DNA of 35,656 bases, taken from Dehalococcoidia bacterium. Its GTDB lineage: Bacteria > Chloroflexota > Dehalococcoidia > DSTF01 > JALHUB01. The notes beneath the pieces were generated by a model, which saw only the letters and a list, made by a program, of their open reading frames with translations, ran no database searches and was not told where the DNA came from. The stretch's first letter is position 1, and the number at the start of each line of letters is the position of its first letter. Position numbers and translations under genes: made by a program. Shown here piece after piece: positions 10,876-25,934 of the stretch. The stretch lies in assembly GCA_049511815.1 (NCBI GenBank), contig JBEKXP010000024.1, positions 1-35,656 of the forward strand, written 5' to 3'.

Positions 10876-10951
10876 GCCCGAGTGGCGCAATGGTAGCGCA
10901 ACCGACTTGTAATCGGTAGGTTGGTGGGTTCGAATCCCCCCTCGGGCTCCA
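10876..10951 (+). tRNA. tRNA-Thr (anticodon UGU), CCA encoded
   Basis: Hand-folded cloverleaf. Acceptor is GCCCGAG/CTCGGGC, D arm GCGC-AATGGTA-GCGC, anticodon arm ACCGA-CTTGTAA-TCGGT, and T loop TTCGAAT. There is one U-C mismatch in the T stem. Confidence 0.85.
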
Positions 10952-10964
10952 GTTGTTGGCAGAC

Positions 10965-11052
10965 GGAGGGGTGGGTGAGCGGCTAAAACCGGCGGTCTGT
11001 AAAATCGCTGCCTTGACAGGCTACGCAGGTTCGAATCCTGCCCCCTCCACCA
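10965..11052 (+). tRNA. tRNA-Tyr (anticodon GUA), class II with long variable arm, CCA encoded
   Basis: Acceptor is GGAGGGG/CCCCTCC, anticodon arm GCGGT-CTGTAAA-ATCGC, long variable arm, and T arm GCAGG-TTCGAAT-CCTGC. Confidence 0.92.
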
Positions 11053-11145
11053 CTCGAAGGCTTGAACGGGAAACCGAAGAACAAAGCACCGGACCAGGGG
11101 GCGGCAGGGAGGCAGAAACGCTGCGCAGCCGCCCATAGTTCAGGT

Positions 11146-11221
11146 GCCCACATAGCTCAGCAGGTAGAGCACGTTCTTGGTAAGAACGGGGTCCTCGGTT
11201 CGAGTCCGAGTGTGGGCTCCA
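11146..11221 (+). tRNA. tRNA-Thr (anticodon GGU), CCA encoded
   Basis: Perfect cloverleaf. Acceptor is GCCCACA/TGTGGGC, D arm GCTC-AGCAGGTA-GAGC, anticodon arm CGTTC-TTGGTAA-GAACG, and T arm CTCGG-TTCGAGT-CCGAG. Confidence 0.95.
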
Positions 11222-19414: not shown

Positions 19415-20608
19415 CTAGCGCTCCGCCGCGCCCGCCTCGAGCTGCGCACGCGCTTCCGATTCGACGATGCGGTAGACTTCCGCCAGCGGCAGCCCGCGCT
19501 CCAGCGCCAGACGGCGGCACGCCTCGTACTCCGGCGAGACCTGCGGCTTGCGCCCGGGTAACCGCTTGACCTTCACCGCCGCCGGCCCCAGGCTCGACTC
19601 GAACTCGAACGTCTCCCGCCGCGCCTCATGGCGGCGCACCTCCTGCACGCGCACGCCCAGTGTCGACGTCTCCTCCAGCAAGACGCGCGTGAGGCCGTCC
19701 TCCCGCTCCACGGAGCACAGGAGGGACACCTTGATCGCCGGCCGGTTCTTCTTCATCTGGATGGGGGTGAACCAGACGTCCGCCGCGCCGGCCTCGAACA
19801 GCCGCTCCTGCACGAAGCCCAGCAGCTCCGCGCTCATGTCGTCGATGTTCGTCTCGATTAGAAGCATGGCGCTCTCTGCCTGCGGCAGCGGCTCGCCGAG
19901 CCAGAGGCGGAGCACGTTGGGGCGACCCGCGGTGTCGCGAGTGCCGGCGCCGTAGCCGACGCGTTCGAGCGTCATCGCCGGTCGCTCGAAGCTCGCCAGC
20001 GTGGCGATGATCGCCGCGCCGGTCGGCGTCACGAGCTCGCCCGGCTCGCCGGAGTCGGAGATGGGCGCATTCGCCGCCGCGAGAAGCTGCAGCGTCGCCG
20101 GCGCCGGGACCGGCAGCGTTCCGTGCGCGCCCTGCACTTCGCCGCGTCCGACGGGCAGACGGGAGGCGAAAAGCTGCTCGACGCCCAGAAGGCGCAGGCC
20201 CGCTACCGCCCCAGCCACGTCGATCAGCGTATCGAGGGAGCCCAGCTCATGCAGGACGACGGAGTCGACTTCGACGCCATGGACGCGCGCTTCCGCTTCG
20301 GCGAGGCGACGGAAGACGGCGGTTGCCTTCTCCCTGTCGGCCGGCGGCAGGGCGCTGCTGTCGATAACCCTCAGCGCGTCGCGCAGCCGCGGAAGGGACG
20401 GCGCGTCCGCCGCCAATTCGACCGTGACTTTCGTGGCGCCAAGCTCGCCGCGCTGCGTCCGTTCCGCCGTCAGCCGGTAGCCGGAGACGTTCAGCTTCGC
20501 CAGCTCCGCCTGCAGCGTCGCCAGCGGCAGGCCGGCGTCGACCAGTGCGCCGAGGAGCATGTCGCCGCTGATGCCGGAGAAGCAGTCGAGGTAGGCGATG
20601 CGCGTCAG
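19415..20608 (-). CDS. larC: Nickel-pincer cofactor biosynthesis protein LarC (DUF111 nickel insertion protein)
   Basis: It resembles the DUF111/LarC family throughout. The conserved N-terminal YLDCFSGISGDM lies upstream of the first ATG (20560). I extended the call to the in-frame CTG at 20608, which is 6 nt after AAGGAG. There is no ATG/GTG/TTG between the upstream in-frame TGA and 20560. Confidence 0.8.
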   Translation of the reverse strand: MTRIAYLDCFSGISGDMLLGALVDAGLPLATLQAELAKLNVSGYRLTAERTQRGELGATKVTVELAADAPSLPRLRDALRVIDSSALPPADREKATAVFRRLAEAEARVHGVEVDSVVLHELGSLDTLIDVAGAVAGLRLLGVEQLFASRLPVGRGEVQGAHGTLPVPAPATLQLLAAANAPISDSGEPGELVTPTGAAIIATLASFERPAMTLERVGYGAGTRDTAGRPNVLRLWLGEPLPQAESAMLLIETNIDDMSAELLGFVQERLFEAGAADVWFTPIQMKKNRPAIKVSLLCSVEREDGLTRVLLEETSTLGVRVQEVRRHEARRETFEFESSLGPAAVKVKRLPGRKPQVSPEYEACRRLALERGLPLAEVYRIVESEARAQLEAGAAER

Positions 20609-20624
20609 CGTCGGCTCCTTGCCC

Positions 20625-21398
20625 TCAGCCCTGGGCGTGGGCGAGCTGGTTGATCACGGCTGCCAGGTAGCCGGCGCCAAAGCCGTTGTCGATGTTGACG
20701 ACGGCGACGCCCGGGGCGCAACTATTCAGCATCGTCAGCAGCGGCGCGATGCCCTGGAAGCTGGCGCCGTAGCCCACGGACGTCGGTACGCCGATGACCG
20801 GCATCGCGACCAGCCCGGAGACGACGCTGGGGAGCGCGCCCTCCATGCCGGCGACGACGACGAGCACGCGCGCCTCACGCAGCTTCGGCAGGTGGTCCAG
20901 AAGACGGTGCAACCCGGCAACGCCCACGTCATAAATCCGCTCGACGCCGCTGCCCATGAGCGCCGCCGTGACGGCCGCTTCCTCCGCCACCGGCAGGTCC
21001 GCGGTACCGCCGCAGACAAGGCACACGCCGGGCAGCGCTTTGGCCGGATGCCGGTCCAGCGTTGCCGCCCGCGCGACTTCGTGGTAGACGGCGTCGGGGA
21101 CCTTTTTGACGATTTGATCGAATACGTCGCGGTCGATGCGCGTTACCAGCAGGCGTCCGGCGCGCTCGGCGAGGCGCTCGGCGATCGTCACCACCTGCTC
21201 CGGTGTCTTTCCCTGGCCCAACACGACCTCCGGCAGGCTATCGCGAAGGGCGCGATGGTGGTCCAGCTTGGCGAAGCCGATATCCTCGTAGGGAAGGTGG
21301 CGCAGCCTTTCCAGCGCGCCTTCGATGTCCGTCGTCCCTTCGGATACGGACTGGAGTAGCTGCCGCAGGCTCTGCTCGTCGATAGTGTCACTCTCCAG
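20625..21398 (-). CDS. larB: LarB (PurE-like pyridinium-3,5-biscarboxylic acid mononucleotide synthase); start uncertain
   Basis: It has a PurE-like core (CGGTADLPVAEEA, VVVAGMEGALPSVVSGLV, PVIGVPTSVGYG). The in-frame upstream sequence YEDIGFAKLDHHRALRDSLPEVVLGQGKT matches the LarB N-domain, but no canonical start occurs upstream of GTG 21224. The 5' end is set provisionally at CTG 21398. Confidence 0.75.
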   Translation of the reverse strand: MESDTIDEQSLRQLLQSVSEGTTDIEGALERLRHLPYEDIGFAKLDHHRALRDSLPEVVLGQGKTPEQVVTIAERLAERAGRLLVTRIDRDVFDQIVKKVPDAVYHEVARAATLDRHPAKALPGVCLVCGGTADLPVAEEAAVTAALMGSGVERIYDVGVAGLHRLLDHLPKLREARVLVVVAGMEGALPSVVSGLVAMPVIGVPTSVGYGASFQGIAPLLTMLNSCAPGVAVVNIDNGFGAGYLAAVINQLAHAQG

Positions 21399-21475: not shown

Positions 21476-21505
21476 TTGACGGCCTTGCAGTTGCAAAGGT
21501 ATTAT
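21476..21505 (+). promoter_or_regulatory. Candidate sigma70-type promoter for the riboswitch-like leader
   Basis: TTGACG (21476-21481), an 18-nt spacer, then TATTAT (21500-21505). It is divergent from the larB promoter candidate. Confidence 0.4.
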
Positions 21506-21511
21506 CAATCC

Positions 21512-21715
21512 GGCGGAGCTGCGTCTTGTAGCGCAGCGTGAGGCATTAAACGGTAACATGGAAGCCGACGACGGCGGCGATCGTAGCCGCCAAACAGAAA
21601 ACAGAGGAGACGATTCGCGGTCGATGAGTCGCTGCTAGAGCGCTAGCGCGCCCGGCCGCGGCTCGTCCGCGGCGAACCACCTCCTGGCACGACCTTCTTG
21701 AGGAGGTGGTTTTTC
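21512..21715 (+). promoter_or_regulatory. Candidate Mg2+-sensing (M-box/ykoK-like) riboswitch leader
   Basis: This is a leader of about 200 nt before a Mg-transport-related gene. By eye it resembles conserved M-box segments: GCGUGAGGC, CAAACAGAAAACAGAGGAG, GCUGCUAGAGCGCUAGCG. It ends in a terminator that also sequesters the RBS. It has not been verified with a covariance model. Confidence 0.45.
21675..21714 (+). terminator. Intrinsic terminator / RBS-sequestering hairpin (expression platform)
   Basis: 11-bp perfect stem AACCACCTCCT (21675-21685) / AGGAGGTGGTT (21701-21711). The T-run at 21710-21714 is immediately followed by ATG 21716. The 3' arm contains the GGAGG Shine-Dalgarno sequence. 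Confidence 0.8.
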
Positions 21716-22951
21716 ATGCCTTTCCTCAGCCAGCTCTTGGGCCGGCCCACTCTCGACGCCGAGGGCGTGCGCATCGGCGTGCTGCGAGACCTCCTGGTAT
21801 CGAGCGATAACCCCTATCCGGCGCTGAGCGCAATCGTCGTCGCTGACAAAGGTCACTTGCACGCCATCCCCTGGATTCACGTCGCTTCCGTCACGCCGCG
21901 CGGCGCCGTGCTGCGCAGCCGCGTCCGCCTGGAGGCGTTTCCCGCGCCGACCGACGACATGATCTGGCTGGGGCGCGACCTGCTGGACAAGCAGATCGTT
22001 GATACGCACGGTGTGAAGCTGGTGCGGGTGAACGACCTGGCGCTGACGCCCATCAACGGCGACCTGCGCCTCGCCGGCGTCGACAACAGCGTGGCCGGCC
22101 TGCTGCGGCGGCTCGGGATCGAATGGCTGGCCAACATCGCCGGTCGCGGGCGGCCGCGACTCATCGATTGGGAGCAGGTGGACATCGGCCCGGCGGTCGA
22201 CGAGATCCGGCTGAAGGTGCCGTTCCACCGCCTGCGCCGGATGAACCCGGCGGACATCGCGTCGGTCATCAGCCAGATGTCGCCCGGCGAGGCGGCGGAC
22301 GTGCTGGAGGCGCTGGACGACGAGATCGCGGCGGACGCCCTGGCCGAGCTGTCGGACGAGCACCAGGCGGCGGTCGTGAACGCCATGGAGCCGGAAGAAG
22401 CCGCCGATGTGCTAGAGCGCATGGCGCCGGACGAAGCGGCGGACATCCTGGGCGACGTCCACGAGGAGCGCGCCGGCGAGCTGATGCGCCTGATGGAGCC
22501 GCACACGGCGCAGGAGGTGCGTTCGCTCCTGATCTACGAAGAGGACACCGCCGGCGGCCTGATGAACAGCCGTCTCTTCGCCGTCGCCGAGATGGAGACG
22601 GCGGGCCGCGTGCTGGAGGACCTCAGGCGCACGTCTCCGCCGGAAGACGAGATCTACTATCTCTACGTTGTCGACAGTGGCGGGCGGCTGTGGGGCGTCC
22701 TCTCGCTGCGGGACCTGGTCGTCGCCGAGCCGGACACGCTCATCGCTGACTGCGCGCGGCAGGACGTGGCGTTCGTGCGCCTGGACGACTCCAAGGAGGA
22801 GGTGGCGCGCAAGCTCATCCACTACAATCTGCTCGCCATCCCGGTCGTCGATGAGCACGGCCACCTCAAGGGCATGGTGACCGTGGACGACGTGCTGGAC
22901 CTGGTGACGCCGCGCGCCTGGCAGAACCAGCCGCGTCGAATGGCGGGATAG
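21716..22951 (+). CDS. Soluble MgtE-like cytoplasmic module: 2 PRC-barrel-like segments + MgtE_N + CBS pair, no transmembrane pore
   Basis: The ATG at 21716 is preferred over TTG 21698 because of RBS spacing. It has the acidic helical MgtE_N repeats SPGEAADVLEALDDEIAADALAEL and EPEEAADVLERMAPDEAADILGDV. The CBS pair is GGLMNSRLFAV...LYVVDSGGRLWGVLSLRDLV...LLAIPVVDEHGHLKGMVTVDDVLD. The ORF ends right after CBS2 with no hydrophobic helices. Confidence 0.8.
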   Translation: MPFLSQLLGRPTLDAEGVRIGVLRDLLVSSDNPYPALSAIVVADKGHLHAIPWIHVASVTPRGAVLRSRVRLEAFPAPTDDMIWLGRDLLDKQIVDTHGVKLVRVNDLALTPINGDLRLAGVDNSVAGLLRRLGIEWLANIAGRGRPRLIDWEQVDIGPAVDEIRLKVPFHRLRRMNPADIASVISQMSPGEAADVLEALDDEIAADALAELSDEHQAAVVNAMEPEEAADVLERMAPDEAADILGDVHEERAGELMRLMEPHTAQEVRSLLIYEEDTAGGLMNSRLFAVAEMETAGRVLEDLRRTSPPEDEIYYLYVVDSGGRLWGVLSLRDLVVAEPDTLIADCARQDVAFVRLDDSKEEVARKLIHYNLLAIPVVDEHGHLKGMVTVDDVLDLVTPRAWQNQPRRMAG

Positions 22952-22965
22952 ACGGATGAGGGACG

Positions 22966-24285
22966 ATGACAAACCAGGCTATCCCCCCGATGCGGCTCGG
23001 CCGGCCGTTGGCGCGTGGTCTGGAAGTGCTGGCCCGCATGGGCCCGTGGCGGCGGGCGGCGCTGTTCCTGGCCGTCATGGGGCCGGGCCTCATTACCGGC
23101 ATCGTCGACGATGATTCGACAGGGATTGCTGGCTACGCGATTGCCGGTTCACGCTTCGGCTACAACCTCCTCTGGACGCTGGTCCTCGCCGCCGCGGCGC
23201 TTGCGATCGTGGGTGAGATGGCGGCCCGAATGGGCGCTATCACGGGGAAAGGCCTCGGCGAGATAATCCGCGAGCGCTTCGGCGTACGCATCACCTCTTT
23301 CGCGCTCCTCATCCTGCTGGTTGCCAACACCGCTACCGTAATCGCCGAGTTCGCCGGAATTGCCAGCGCTTCGGAGATATTCCACGTTTCGCGCTACATC
23401 ACCGTTCCGTTGGCTGCGCTCCTGGTGTTCGTCGTCGTGGCCTACGGCTCCTACCGGCGAATGGAGAGGGTGCTGCTGGTGTTCTCCGCCGTATCGGTGG
23501 CCTACATCGTCACCGGCTTCCTGGCGCGACCGGATTGGGGCGCCGTCGCGACGCACTCGGTCGTTCCGCACGTCCAGGCGAACCTGGCGTATCTCTCCAT
23601 CCTCATTGGCGTCATCGGCACGACGATAACGCCCTGGCAGCAGTTCTACCTGCAATCGACGGTCGTGGACAAGGGCCTGGGCGAGCGCGAGTTCAAGCTG
23701 GAGCGTCTGGACGTATTCGTCGGGGCGTTCGCGTCGGCGGCCATCGCTTTCTTCATCATCGTGACGACCGCCGCAACCCTGCACGCCCACGCTGAGCCCT
23801 CGGGAACGGTGGAGCAGATAGCGCAGTCACTGCGACCGCTAGCCGGTGACTTCTCGGCCAATCTCTTCGCCGTCGGCCTGCTTAACGCGTCGCTGCTCGC
23901 GGCCGCGGTCCTGCCGCTCACCACGGCCTACGCCGTCTGCGGCGCTTTCGGTTGGGAGCGCAGCGTCAACCTGCCCATCCGCGAGGCGCCCGTGTTCTTC
24001 GGCCTTTTCGGCGGGCTGCTGGTCGTCGGCGCGGCGGCGGTGCTCATCCCGGGAATGCCGCTCCTGGTCCTGCTCCTCATCCCCAACGTCGTCGGCGCCG
24101 TGCTCCTGCCGGTTATCCTCATCCTGATGCTGAAAGTGCTGAACGACTCGAAGATCATGGGTCGCTGGACGAACTCGACGGGCTGGAACGTCGCGGCGTG
24201 GCTCGTGACAGGCGCGCTTATCGCGCTGACTGTCGTTTACGCCTTCACCGCCGTCTTGCAGGCGACGGGCGTCGTTAGCGGCTGA
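22966..24285 (+). CDS. NRAMP-family (SLC11-like) permease with non-canonical metal-site motifs
   Basis: 439 aa with about 11 hydrophobic helices and NRAMP-like TM1 and TM6 regions. TM1 is GPGLITGIVDDDSTGIAGY and TM6 is GVIGTTITPWQQFYLQS. The canonical DPGN and MPH motifs are replaced. It starts 14 nt after the preceding gene. Confidence 0.8.
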   Translation: MTNQAIPPMRLGRPLARGLEVLARMGPWRRAALFLAVMGPGLITGIVDDDSTGIAGYAIAGSRFGYNLLWTLVLAAAALAIVGEMAARMGAITGKGLGEIIRERFGVRITSFALLILLVANTATVIAEFAGIASASEIFHVSRYITVPLAALLVFVVVAYGSYRRMERVLLVFSAVSVAYIVTGFLARPDWGAVATHSVVPHVQANLAYLSILIGVIGTTITPWQQFYLQSTVVDKGLGEREFKLERLDVFVGAFASAAIAFFIIVTTAATLHAHAEPSGTVEQIAQSLRPLAGDFSANLFAVGLLNASLLAAAVLPLTTAYAVCGAFGWERSVNLPIREAPVFFGLFGGLLVVGAAAVLIPGMPLLVLLLIPNVVGAVLLPVILILMLKVLNDSKIMGRWTNSTGWNVAAWLVTGALIALTVVYAFTAVLQATGVVSG

Positions 24286-24339: not shown

Positions 24340-24368
24340 TTGACGCTCGGTCGTCCCTGGCCGACAAT
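24340..24368 (+). promoter_or_regulatory. Candidate promoter for the zinc-ribbon/His-rich membrane protein gene
   Basis: TTGACG (24340-24345), a 17-nt spacer, then GACAAT (24363-24368), about 80 nt upstream of ATG 24450. Confidence 0.3.
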
Positions 24369-24449: not shown

Positions 24450-25934
24450 ATGGCAGTGCTATGCAAGGAGTGCGGCGCCGAATCGCCGGACGACGGCGTT
24501 TTCTGCGAGCAGTGCGGCCTGAAGCTCGAAAGTCCGGCGGCCGACGCGGTGCCCACGGTGGCCTGTCCAAACTGCGGCACGGCGAACCCGCCCGATAGCG
24601 CTTTCTGCGAAGAATGCGGCGCCGAGATTCCGCCCGACGCCGAAAAGGGCGGACGAAAGCCCGGCTTCCTCGGCTTCGCTGCGAAAGCGGGCCTGGGCGG
24701 GGCTGCCCTTGGAGGCGCTGGCATCGGACTCGCCTCTGTGCTCGGTGGCGGTGGTGGAGGCGGCGTGGCAGGGGCTGCGGGTGGCGCGGCGGCCCAATCA
24801 GGCGCCCAGGCTGCGGCGGAGACGCTCGGCCAGGCGGCGGGACAAGCCGCAGGCGGGGCGGGCGGATCGGCCGGCGGAGCGTCCTCCGGCGCCGCCGCGG
24901 GAGGAGCGCACACAGGCTTGTACGGTGGCGCGCAGGGCGCCGGAACCGCGCCCGGAGGCACAGCACCCGGCGGAACTGCGACCGGCGGAGGCGCGGCAAC
25001 CGGCGGCGGAGCGCCTGGGAGTGGCACGGCCACCGGAGGTGGCGCGCCCGGCGGCACAGCGACCGGCGGCGGTGGCGCACCCGGCGGCGGCGGCGCACCT
25101 GGCGGTACGGCAACCGGCGGCGGCGGAGCGCCCGGAGGCACAACGACCGGCGGTGGAGCGCCCGGAGGCACCACGACGGGCGGCGGACCGCCATCCGGAA
25201 CGACGCACACGGGCCCCGGTTGGGGCCATCCCGCCGACGGGCATGGCCATCGTGGGCATCATGGACATCACGGTCACGGCGGCCATGTTGGCGCTGGCGC
25301 CGGTGCGGGGGCGGCGGCAGGCGGTGGTGGTGGAGGACTGCTCTCCATCGGTGCGCTCATCGGCGCGATCATCAAATGGGGGCTAATCGGTCTCATAACG
25401 CTGGTGGGCCTCGGGATCGGAGCATCCGTCGTTGGGGCGGCGCTCATCTTCACCGGCAACCCCAGCCCTTGCGTCAACCGCCCGATCACGCCGTCGACGG
25501 CGGCGAGTCAGGCGCTGCGCGACCAGTGGAACGCTTTCGAGCAGCAGGCGCTCAGCGGCAGCGCGACGATCACTTTCGACGAGACCGGCGTCACGTCACG
25601 CGGTGTCGAGTACATCAAAGAGAAAGACCTGCCGCTCAAGGACCTGCAGGTCAACTTCTGTCCCGACGGCCTCGGTGAGGCGCGCGGAACGATTGACTCG
25701 CCAGGACGGCCCATTCACGTGCTGCTGCGCGGAACGCTCGACCTGTCGGGCCCGCAGCCGCGCATCGACGTGACGACGATCAAGGCGGGCAATCTTCCCA
25801 GCATCTTCGGCGGCACCGACTGGATAATCACGAACATCATCAAGAAGAGCAACGCCGACATCCTCGACGTGAAGCCGCATCTGACGAAGCTGGTGATAAC
25901 GGACGGCTCAGCGACGCTGACGGGAGGACCTTAG
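24450..25934 (+). CDS. Double zinc-ribbon / Gly-Ala-Thr-rich repeat / His-rich / single-pass membrane protein (unknown function)
   Basis: Two CxxC-x11/12-CxxC ribbons are present (CKECG...CEQCG; CPNCG...CEECG). About 190 aa of low complexity includes GGTATGGGAPGG-type repeats. The His cluster is GHPADGHGHRGHHGHHGHGGH. The hydrophobic segment is LLSIGALIGAIIKWGLIGLITLVGLGIGASVVGAALIF. A non-repetitive C-terminal domain of about 160 aa follows. Third-position GC bias supports this strand over the Pro-rich antisense ORFs. Confidence 0.7.
   Translation: MAVLCKECGAESPDDGVFCEQCGLKLESPAADAVPTVACPNCGTANPPDSAFCEECGAEIPPDAEKGGRKPGFLGFAAKAGLGGAALGGAGIGLASVLGGGGGGGVAGAAGGAAAQSGAQAAAETLGQAAGQAAGGAGGSAGGASSGAAAGGAHTGLYGGAQGAGTAPGGTAPGGTATGGGAATGGGAPGSGTATGGGAPGGTATGGGGAPGGGGAPGGTATGGGGAPGGTTTGGGAPGGTTTGGGPPSGTTHTGPGWGHPADGHGHRGHHGHHGHGGHVGAGAGAGAAAGGGGGGLLSIGALIGAIIKWGLIGLITLVGLGIGASVVGAALIFTGNPSPCVNRPITPSTAASQALRDQWNAFEQQALSGSATITFDETGVTSRGVEYIKEKDLPLKDLQVNFCPDGLGEARGTIDSPGRPIHVLLRGTLDLSGPQPRIDVTTIKAGNLPSIFGGTDWIITNIIKKSNADILDVKPHLTKLVITDGSATLTGGP
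24936..25202 (+). repeat. Imperfect in-frame tandem repeats encoding (G-G-T-A/T-T-G-G-G-A-P)n
   Basis: The protein segment is GTAPGGTAPGGTATGGGAATGGGAPGSGTATGGGAPGGTATGGGGAPGGGGAPGGTATGGGGAPGGTTTGGGAPGGTTTGGGPPSGTT. The DNA units of about 30-36 nt are degenerate. Confidence 0.85.

Follow-up and report, generated by a model that had tools for sequence, protein, structure and literature searches.

A soluble MgtE-like sensor gene with two predicted PRC barrels precedes an NRMT-clade carrier gene, behind a conserved structured leader, in a Dehalococcoidia bacterium

NrmT was defined by Shin et al. (2014; PLoS Genet, PMC4072509), who reported that most genes of the NrmT clade adjoin a gene for MgtE's N-terminal cytoplasmic domain. 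In this work we analysed a stretch of 35,656 nucleotides (nt) from a Dehalococcoidia bacterium (the window), in which positions 21716-24285 form a two-gene operon of this already published type: a carrier of the NRMT (Nramp-related Mg2+ transporter)/NrmT clade of SLC11 is preceded by the ancillary MgtE-like homolog, called here the sensor. When the Acidobacterium capsulatum pair was co-expressed in a Mg2+-transport-deficient Bacillus subtilis, the partner gave no further Mg2+ rescue; A. capsulatum NrmT rescued Mn2+ transport and behaved mainly as a Mn2+ transporter, and "cytoplasmic feedback regulation" or a chaperone role was proposed for the partner (PMC4072509). In the literature after 2014 we found no characterisation of the MgtE-like partner. 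The closest carrier of known structure, EleNRMT of Eggerthella lenta (Ramanadane et al., 2022, eLife; PMC8806188), was characterised alone, and the partner is not discussed there.

As in the A. capsulatum operon, the MgtE-like gene lies upstream of the carrier gene at this locus, the carrier comes from the same NRAMP clade, and the sensor is a separate gene for an MgtE cytoplasmic domain adjoining an NrmT-clade gene. There are three differences. The partner of Shin et al. was described as a small MgtE N-terminal cytoplasmic homolog, with PRC barrels unmentioned (PMC4072509), whereas the sensor in the window has two; their Clostridial examples are M-box regulated, whereas this locus has no M-box; and in comparison with their examples, the lineage here is Chloroflexota and the pair is also found in Methanobacteria. 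The original prediction, made from the sequence alone, implied that both the pairing and the idea of a trans-acting sensor were new, and this has to be withdrawn, both being present in Shin et al. (PMC4072509). Its term "split transporter" is also unfit, because NRMT is a complete carrier and EleNRMT works alone in vitro (PMC8806188). The locus adds one more example of the reported pairing and does not change what is known; the new points are modest and concern the PRC barrels, the Mg2+ sites that are kept or lost, a basic tail, the archaeal distribution and a clade-specific leader. The two genes and their features are as follows.

21716..22951, forward strand: gene for the soluble MgtE-like sensor, PRC-PRC-MgtE_N-CBS-CBS without a pore, 411 amino acids
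21716..22213, forward strand: predicted tandem PRC-barrel module (residues 1-66 and 85-166), from Pfam and AlphaFold2/Foldseek
22241..22909, forward strand: MgtE N domain (residues 176-277) and CBS pair (residues 283-398), equivalent to the Thermus thermophilus MgtE cytosolic domain
22910..22948, forward strand: conserved basic C-terminal tail P-R-x-W-x-x-R-P-R-R-M, in the place of the acidic MgtE plug helix
22966..24285, forward strand: gene for the NRMT-clade NRAMP permease, 439 amino acids, PF01566, best solved relative EleNRMT (7qia)
23113..23124, forward strand: helix alpha-1 metal-site motif D-S-T-G (DxxG), aligned to D55-A-G-G58 of EleNRMT
23620..23637, forward strand: helix alpha-6 motif T-T-I-T-P-W (TxxT), aligned to TTIAPW (T224..A227) of EleNRMT
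24079-24096: IPNVVG, permease residues 372-377, with Asn at the position of EleNRMT Gln379

Both open reading frames (ORFs), 21716-22951 and 22966-24285, are present as first described. The sensor starts at the ATG at 21716, which is preceded by GGAGG and supported by homologs; its N-terminus reads M-P-F-L-S-Q, and M1, F3 and S5 are conserved among these homologs. The permease gene lies on the same strand after a gap of 14 nt and has its own ribosome-binding site, GAGGGA. The two genes are predicted to be co-transcribed and are probably translationally coupled. That the second gene encodes an NRAMP permease, as had been proposed, was upheld by a PF01566 match at E 2.8e-88 that covers 356 of 357 model positions, and the best solved relative is EleNRMT (7QIA, E 1e-100), MntH structures giving about 1e-22 or weaker. 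Ramanadane et al. set out a clade signature for NRMT, DxxG on alpha-1 with TxxA/T on alpha-6 (PMC8806188). The window permease shares with EleNRMT the DxxG motif, the TxxA/T motif and the alpha-6b Trp, and both proteins lack the proton-pathway histidines; the window protein has TxxT and an Asn on alpha-10 where EleNRMT has TxxA and Gln379. In the alpha-6 motif the Trp stands for the first proton-pathway His and, within TPWQQFYLQS, W and L occupy the canonical NRAMP His positions, which are W and N in EleNRMT. By these sequence features the permease is assigned to the Mg2+-type NRMT clade of SLC11, and its substrate is predicted to be Mg2+ and/or Mn2+ from the binding-site signature only.

The sensor contains the regulatory half of MgtE, as the original prediction had proposed for ORF 21716..22951. 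In Pfam the sensor matches MgtE_N over residues 176-277 (E 1.6e-24), CBS as a pair (2.1e-18) and PRC (6.8e-6), residues 172-403 align to the cytosolic domain of T. thermophilus MgtE (2yvy, E 6.5e-46), and the AlphaFold2 model, with a predicted local distance difference test (pLDDT) score of 81, matches 2ZY9/2YVY in Foldseek with E 1e-21, a target template modelling (TM) score of 0.77 and 43% identity. The pore is missing, also as predicted: PF01769 has no Pfam match in the sensor ORF, the NCBIfam model TIGR00400 (mgtE) aligns only over its positions 27-254 of 450 and at 161 bits, under the cut-off of 233, and no transmembrane segment is predicted in the sensor, in which the maximal 19-residue hydropathy is 1.01. 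The expected domain content was thus obtained, MgtE_N, CBS and PRC without PF01769 in the sensor and PF01566 in the permease, and so was the expected topology, with no hydrophobic segment in the former and about 11 in the latter. Compared with T. thermophilus MgtE (2YVX/2ZY9), the sensor shares the N domain and CBS pair, with the same fold and the Mg4/Mg6 ligands; it lacks the five-helix pore and the acidic plug helix, and gains two N-terminal PRC barrels and a basic tail.

A decayed, truncated mgtE pseudogene without function would also stop right after CBS2, where a full MgtE runs on into the pore, and public annotations often label these pore-less proteins "magnesium transporter". We see practically no chance that the sensor is such a pseudogene, since more than 100 sensor clusters, down to 44% identity, keep a length of about 411 amino acids and an identical architecture, the family reaches many phyla at 36-45% identity, invariant residues are spread across the whole length of the protein, a conserved tail follows CBS2 and the AlphaFold2 model is confident. 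A truncation or frameshift that would have separated the ORF from a pore was rejected for this same conservation of the family and because no MgtE pore is encoded at any place in the window.

The two PRC-barrel-like segments ahead of MgtE_N, which the original prediction had also noticed, are each matched weakly by Pfam (E 0.013 and 0.0026 for the two N-terminal halves), and in the homologs at loci L055 and L066 the PRC matches fall on the first barrel. The AlphaFold2 model of residues 1-169 (pLDDT 84, predicted TM score 0.80) resembles the tandem PRC-barrel proteins CdpB1/CdpB2 (8qzo, E 1e-6, TM score about 0.6) as well as the single PRC barrels of MTH1859, the reaction-centre H subunit and RimM. 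As this model matches both tandem and single PRC-barrel structures, the presence of two PRC barrels is confirmed at the level of the predicted fold. PRC barrels elsewhere serve in protein docking and, because of the match to CdpB1/B2 and to the reaction-centre H subunit, those of the sensor may be docking modules as well. Two Ktedonobacteria, L055 (Dictyobacter alpinus) and L066, have the same PRC, N domain and CBS module, 39% identical to the sensor, with the PF01769 pore kept in one polypeptide (658 and 676 amino acids) and with no adjacent NRAMP gene.

L055 3965-5941 and L066 3908-5938: full-length PRC + MgtE_N + CBS + MgtE pore proteins

These full-length proteins may show the PRC-bearing sensor in its ancestral state or after re-fusion.

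To map the Mg2+ ligands of MgtE onto the sensor, we took the sites as assigned by Maruyama et al. (2018; PMC5882242) and compared 75 close and 80 distant homologs. Mg2+-dependent closure of MgtE requires D91/D247 (Mg4) and D95 (Mg6), and the cytosolic sites are low-affinity regulatory sites in the millimolar range (PMC5882242). The corresponding positions are:

Mg4: MgtE D91/D247, sensor D239/D392; D239 invariant in 75/75 close and 80/80 distant homologs, D392 present in 74/75 and 80/80
Mg6: MgtE D95, sensor D243; invariant in the 75 close and 80 distant homologs
Mg5: MgtE D250, sensor D395; kept, Asp or Glu in nearly all homologs
Mg5: MgtE D226, sensor N371; mostly Asn across homologs
Mg2/Mg3, plug helix: MgtE E258/D259, sensor Q403/N404; Lys or Arg in distant homologs

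The plug-helix sites of MgtE link its cytosolic domain to the pore of the same protein. The acidic plug residues (E258, D259) are absent from the sensor, and the place of the plug helix is taken by the basic tail, of which P399, R400 and W402 are at least 90% conserved and which has a pLDDT below 50 in the AlphaFold2 model. Since the Mg4 and Mg6 ligands are retained while the plug ligands are lost in favour of a basic tail, the sensing part of MgtE, the N domain closing onto the CBS pair, is predicted to be kept in the sensor and the pore-coupling part to be replaced. Retained sites, lost plug and added PRC barrels would fit a detached sensor that acts on another protein. They could also be read in terms of the other role offered by Shin et al. 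(PMC4072509), a cytoplasmic metal chaperone or buffer that accepts or delivers Mg2+ or Mn2+ for NRMT and does not gate it: the N domain is very acidic (26% Asp + Glu over residues 172-280) and the metal ligands are conserved. Nevertheless, millimolar sites like those of the MgtE cytosolic domain (PMC5882242) are poorly suited to chaperoning, free Mg2+ is abundant and needs no chaperone, and the PRC barrels and the basic tail would be left unexplained. We consider a chaperone role quite unlikely.

The pairing of sensor and NRMT is real and widespread. A scan for sensor loci with one genome per species returned 80 loci, which span Chloroflexota, Armatimonadota, Acidobacteriota, Nitrospirota, Deltaproteobacteria, Actinomycetota, Caldiserica and Methanobacteria. 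A same-strand NRAMP homolog is present in 63 of the 80, directly downstream in nearly all; the remaining 17 comprise 3 loci that end just past the sensor gene, the 2 full-length Ktedonobacteria MgtE and about 12 true orphans. Look-ups anchored on NRMT found the sensor directly upstream in 3/3 cases. The expectation that the two families co-occur beyond this genome is therefore confirmed, as is the architecture itself, a detached MgtE sensor beside a LeuT-fold NRAMP. In a set of 98 pairs drawn from genome and metagenome loci, the genes are on the same strand in 98/98 and NRAMP is downstream in 97/98, with a median spacing of about 13 nt and a 4-nt overlap in 13 pairs. The alpha-1 motif of the partner is DxxG in 95/98 and ExxG in 3/98, and the alpha-6 motif is T-x-x-T/A/S in all 92 partners covered there, followed by P-W/Y/F in 91. 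The identities of sensor and NRAMP to the window pair correlate (r=0.97), and the pair is retained in close relatives while the neighbouring genes vary.

These observations bear on the proposal that the sensor is an independent Mg2+- or nucleotide-responsive regulator of other targets, co-expressed with NRMT without contacting it. Such a role would account for the orphan sensors in about 12 of the 77 assessable loci, for example those beside Ser/Thr kinase genes in Pyrinomonadaceae, and both CBS pairs and PRC barrels are modules of general use in signalling and interaction. It would not be expected from the conservation of order, strand, tight spacing and 4-nt overlaps across phyla and archaea, nor from a partner that is always of the NRMT type and diverges in parallel with the sensor, and we judge it unlikely. 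As to the orphans themselves, five (L051, L054, L063, L067 and L070; Pyrinomonadaceae/Blastocatellia) have no adjacent NRAMP and are followed by a convergent large gene whose product has a Ser/Thr kinase-like motif at its N-terminus. Other Pyrinomonadaceae loci carry the NRMT pair, so the Pyrinomonadaceae orphan sensors may be paralogs.

The best overall explanation, to which we give a probability of roughly 0.6, is an operon of the published type in which the sensor exerts a Mg2+-responsive, post-translational negative feedback on NRMT. In this model the sensor would, like MgtE, still bind cytosolic Mg2+, and possibly ATP, where the N domain meets the CBS pair, and would close when Mg2+ is replete. 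Once closed, it would use the PRC barrels and/or the conserved basic tail to dock on NRMT at its cytoplasmic face, and the docked sensor would slow uptake by an otherwise uncoupled carrier, so that NRMT may be gated in trans.

Several points weigh against this feedback model. MgtE sensing operates in a dimer that is coupled to its own pore. No fusion of sensor and NRMT was found among the 120 best NRAMP homologs, all of which have PF01566 only, or among the loci. The orphan loci, with no NRAMP within 4 kb in Pyrinomonadaceae and others, mean that the sensor can exist apart from an adjacent NRMT. The window permease has Asn at the position of the alpha-10 Gln379 of EleNRMT, a residue that is functionally important and whose mutation compromises transport (PMC8806188); this Asn is shared by the clade of the window (PNVVG), most other partner NRMTs have Gln, and the change is conservative. 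The Mg2+ specificity of the permease is uncertain, because the A. capsulatum member of the clade behaved as a Mn2+ transporter. Finally, co-expression of the partner was without effect, and NrmT and EleNRMT function without it (PMC4072509, PMC8806188). The co-expression result does not discriminate, because an inhibitory subunit would give the same outcome in a low-Mg2+ rescue assay.

The sensor gene is preceded by a conserved leader, the 206 nt between a promoter-like site and the ATG, with the following features.

21476..21505, forward strand: promoter-like site TTGACG-18 nt-TATTAT, from a consensus scan
21510..21715, forward strand: conserved structured 5' untranslated region (UTR) with several hairpins, covariance model R1, no Rfam family
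21558..21638, forward strand: candidate upstream ORF (uORF) of 26 codons, MEADDGGDRSRQTENRGDDSRSMSRC, acidic (MEADDGGD...), covering the pseudo-Shine-Dalgarno segment
21604..21611, forward strand: pseudo-Shine-Dalgarno (pseudo-SD) segment GAGGAGAC, complementary to the anti-Shine-Dalgarno (anti-SD) segment
21675..21711, forward strand: anti-SD/SD helix, AACCACCTCC (21675-21684) with GGAGGTGGTT (21702-21711), which buries the ribosome-binding site of the sensor gene

The leader is strongly conserved where the neighbouring genes differ, and the GGGTTGACG and GTAnnaTCA blocks at the promoter-like site are likewise conserved in relatives with different flanking genes. A metagenome pattern scan combined with an nhmmer search gathered about 55 copies, and in every copy long enough to show it, the sensor gene comes next. 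Because RNAalifold on a plain MAFFT alignment of the 48 leaders misaligned the variable 5' hairpin, we used the alignment produced by covariance model R1, which holds the same 48 leaders (47 distinct sequences). In it, 89.7% of cells are paired, and two-sided pair changes number 16, against 11.8 in shuffles (0/500 reach 16) and 5-11 in slid controls. The anti-SD/SD helix has ten pairs and is 100% paired, its closing pair changing from C-G to U-A in 8 sequences; the search pattern fixed this helix (helix 9), and its invariance in the metagenome loci is partly by construction. An upstream GAGGAG can pair with the same anti-SD as the ribosome-binding site of the sensor gene, and the base preceding GGAG changes along with its counterpart in the anti-SD, A being found with U in 11/12 and G with C in 31/35. 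This fits an alternative pairing, with the proviso that the covariation may reflect only one or two evolutionary events.

The original prediction called this leader riboswitch-like, which is fair as a description only: a conserved structure is present in 47 distinct sequences, yet no Rfam family matches it and a riboswitch is not demonstrated. In the Rfam searches, neither M-box RF00380 nor any other riboswitch family reached the gathering score in the window or across 20 related loci, and at E<=10 neither the leader nor 10 more loci that bear it gave one; the leader itself matched no Rfam family at either threshold. The identity of the leader with the M-box (ykoK, RF00380) was rejected for lack of a covariance-model match. 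M-box (ykoK) and mgtA/mgtL leader-peptide control are functional analogies, in that a long structured leader precedes a Mg2+-transport operon; in contrast with the M-box, the expression platform here would be translational, sequestering the ribosome-binding site, and not a terminator. R1 finds the leader only in one Chloroflexota clade, with about 65% or more sensor identity, so it is not a general feature of the gene pair; loci L003, L090 and L165 have only the anti-SD/SD platform in common with it. Sub-threshold Rfam matches to GRIK4_3p_UTR lie a few hundred nucleotides upstream of the leader in L137 (1634-1720, E 0.004) and L113 (679-765, E 0.095) and are probably due to chance.

In our view the leader is a real cis-regulatory element that works either as a riboswitch or by leader-peptide attenuation. 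The odds appear about even that it is not a ligand-binding riboswitch and acts as a uORF-dependent (leader-peptide) or protein-dependent translational attenuator, or is merely a stable 5' UTR. Attenuation by a leader peptide would agree with a uORF that is open in 47/47 distinct leaders, over 22-28 codons and with UAG, UAA or UGA as stop, with the position of the pseudo-SD inside it and with the lack of an Rfam aptamer match. The N-terminus of the uORF is conserved (ME[STA]D[DEQ][GDE]G), and in most sequences the spacing between its stop and the anti-SD is constant. On the other side, several hairpins covary as RNA, and both the codon-position signal and the synonymous-change signal are weak, barely above those of the other two frames; because the codon-position signal is weak, we do not claim that the uORF is translated, and it is only a candidate. 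If the leader is added to the feedback model, it would supply a second layer in the Chloroflexota clade, hiding the ribosome-binding site in the anti-SD helix, while the anti-SD could pair instead with the upstream pseudo-SD inside the small uORF. A fuller version, in which the sensor forms a physical complex with NRMT and, responding to cytosolic Mg2+/ATP, gates it, and in which the leader is an undescribed translational element (a riboswitch of a new class or an attenuator with an acidic leader peptide), is tentative and less likely than not.

Several members of the clade have, divergently oriented and immediately upstream of the leader promoter, short ORFs that look like the C-terminal TM5 segment of the MgtE pore (L083 5432-5697, reverse strand; also L084, L197, L191, L198 and L085); a 49-amino-acid one has a PF01769 match, and none is present in the window. 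Such ORFs could be remnants of a pore gene or encode a small membrane peptide. Upstream of the leader in the window, the divergent region 19415-21224 (reverse strand) holds larC- and larB-like genes, matching the Ni_insertion and AIRC Pfam families in the syntenic locus L081. Downstream of the pair, the gene at 24450-25934 (forward strand) has its own promoter-like site (24340-24368) and encodes a protein with a zinc-ribbon-like CxxC pair at its N-terminus, a low-complexity region that is very long and rich in Gly/Ala/Thr, a His-rich stretch and a hydrophobic segment. Three tRNA genes are clustered at 10876-11218 (forward strand).

The MgtE-like partner was reported in 2014, and the structural study of EleNRMT in 2022 is silent on it. 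This locus supplies testable details, namely retained Mg4/Mg6 sites, lost plug sites, and a basic tail and PRC barrels as candidate docking elements, with the conserved leader as a candidate second layer of control. In practical terms, the label "magnesium transporter" is being put on pore-less proteins in public annotations. Should the sensor prove to gate NRMT in trans, we would have a clear example of transporter folds that are unrelated exchanging a sensor domain, a regulatory module having moved from a channel fold onto a LeuT-fold carrier. The biophysics of isolated NRMT, an uncoupled, low-affinity uniport, would then describe the unregulated half of the native system, and the sensor would explain how an uncoupled Mg2+ uniporter avoids overloading the cell.

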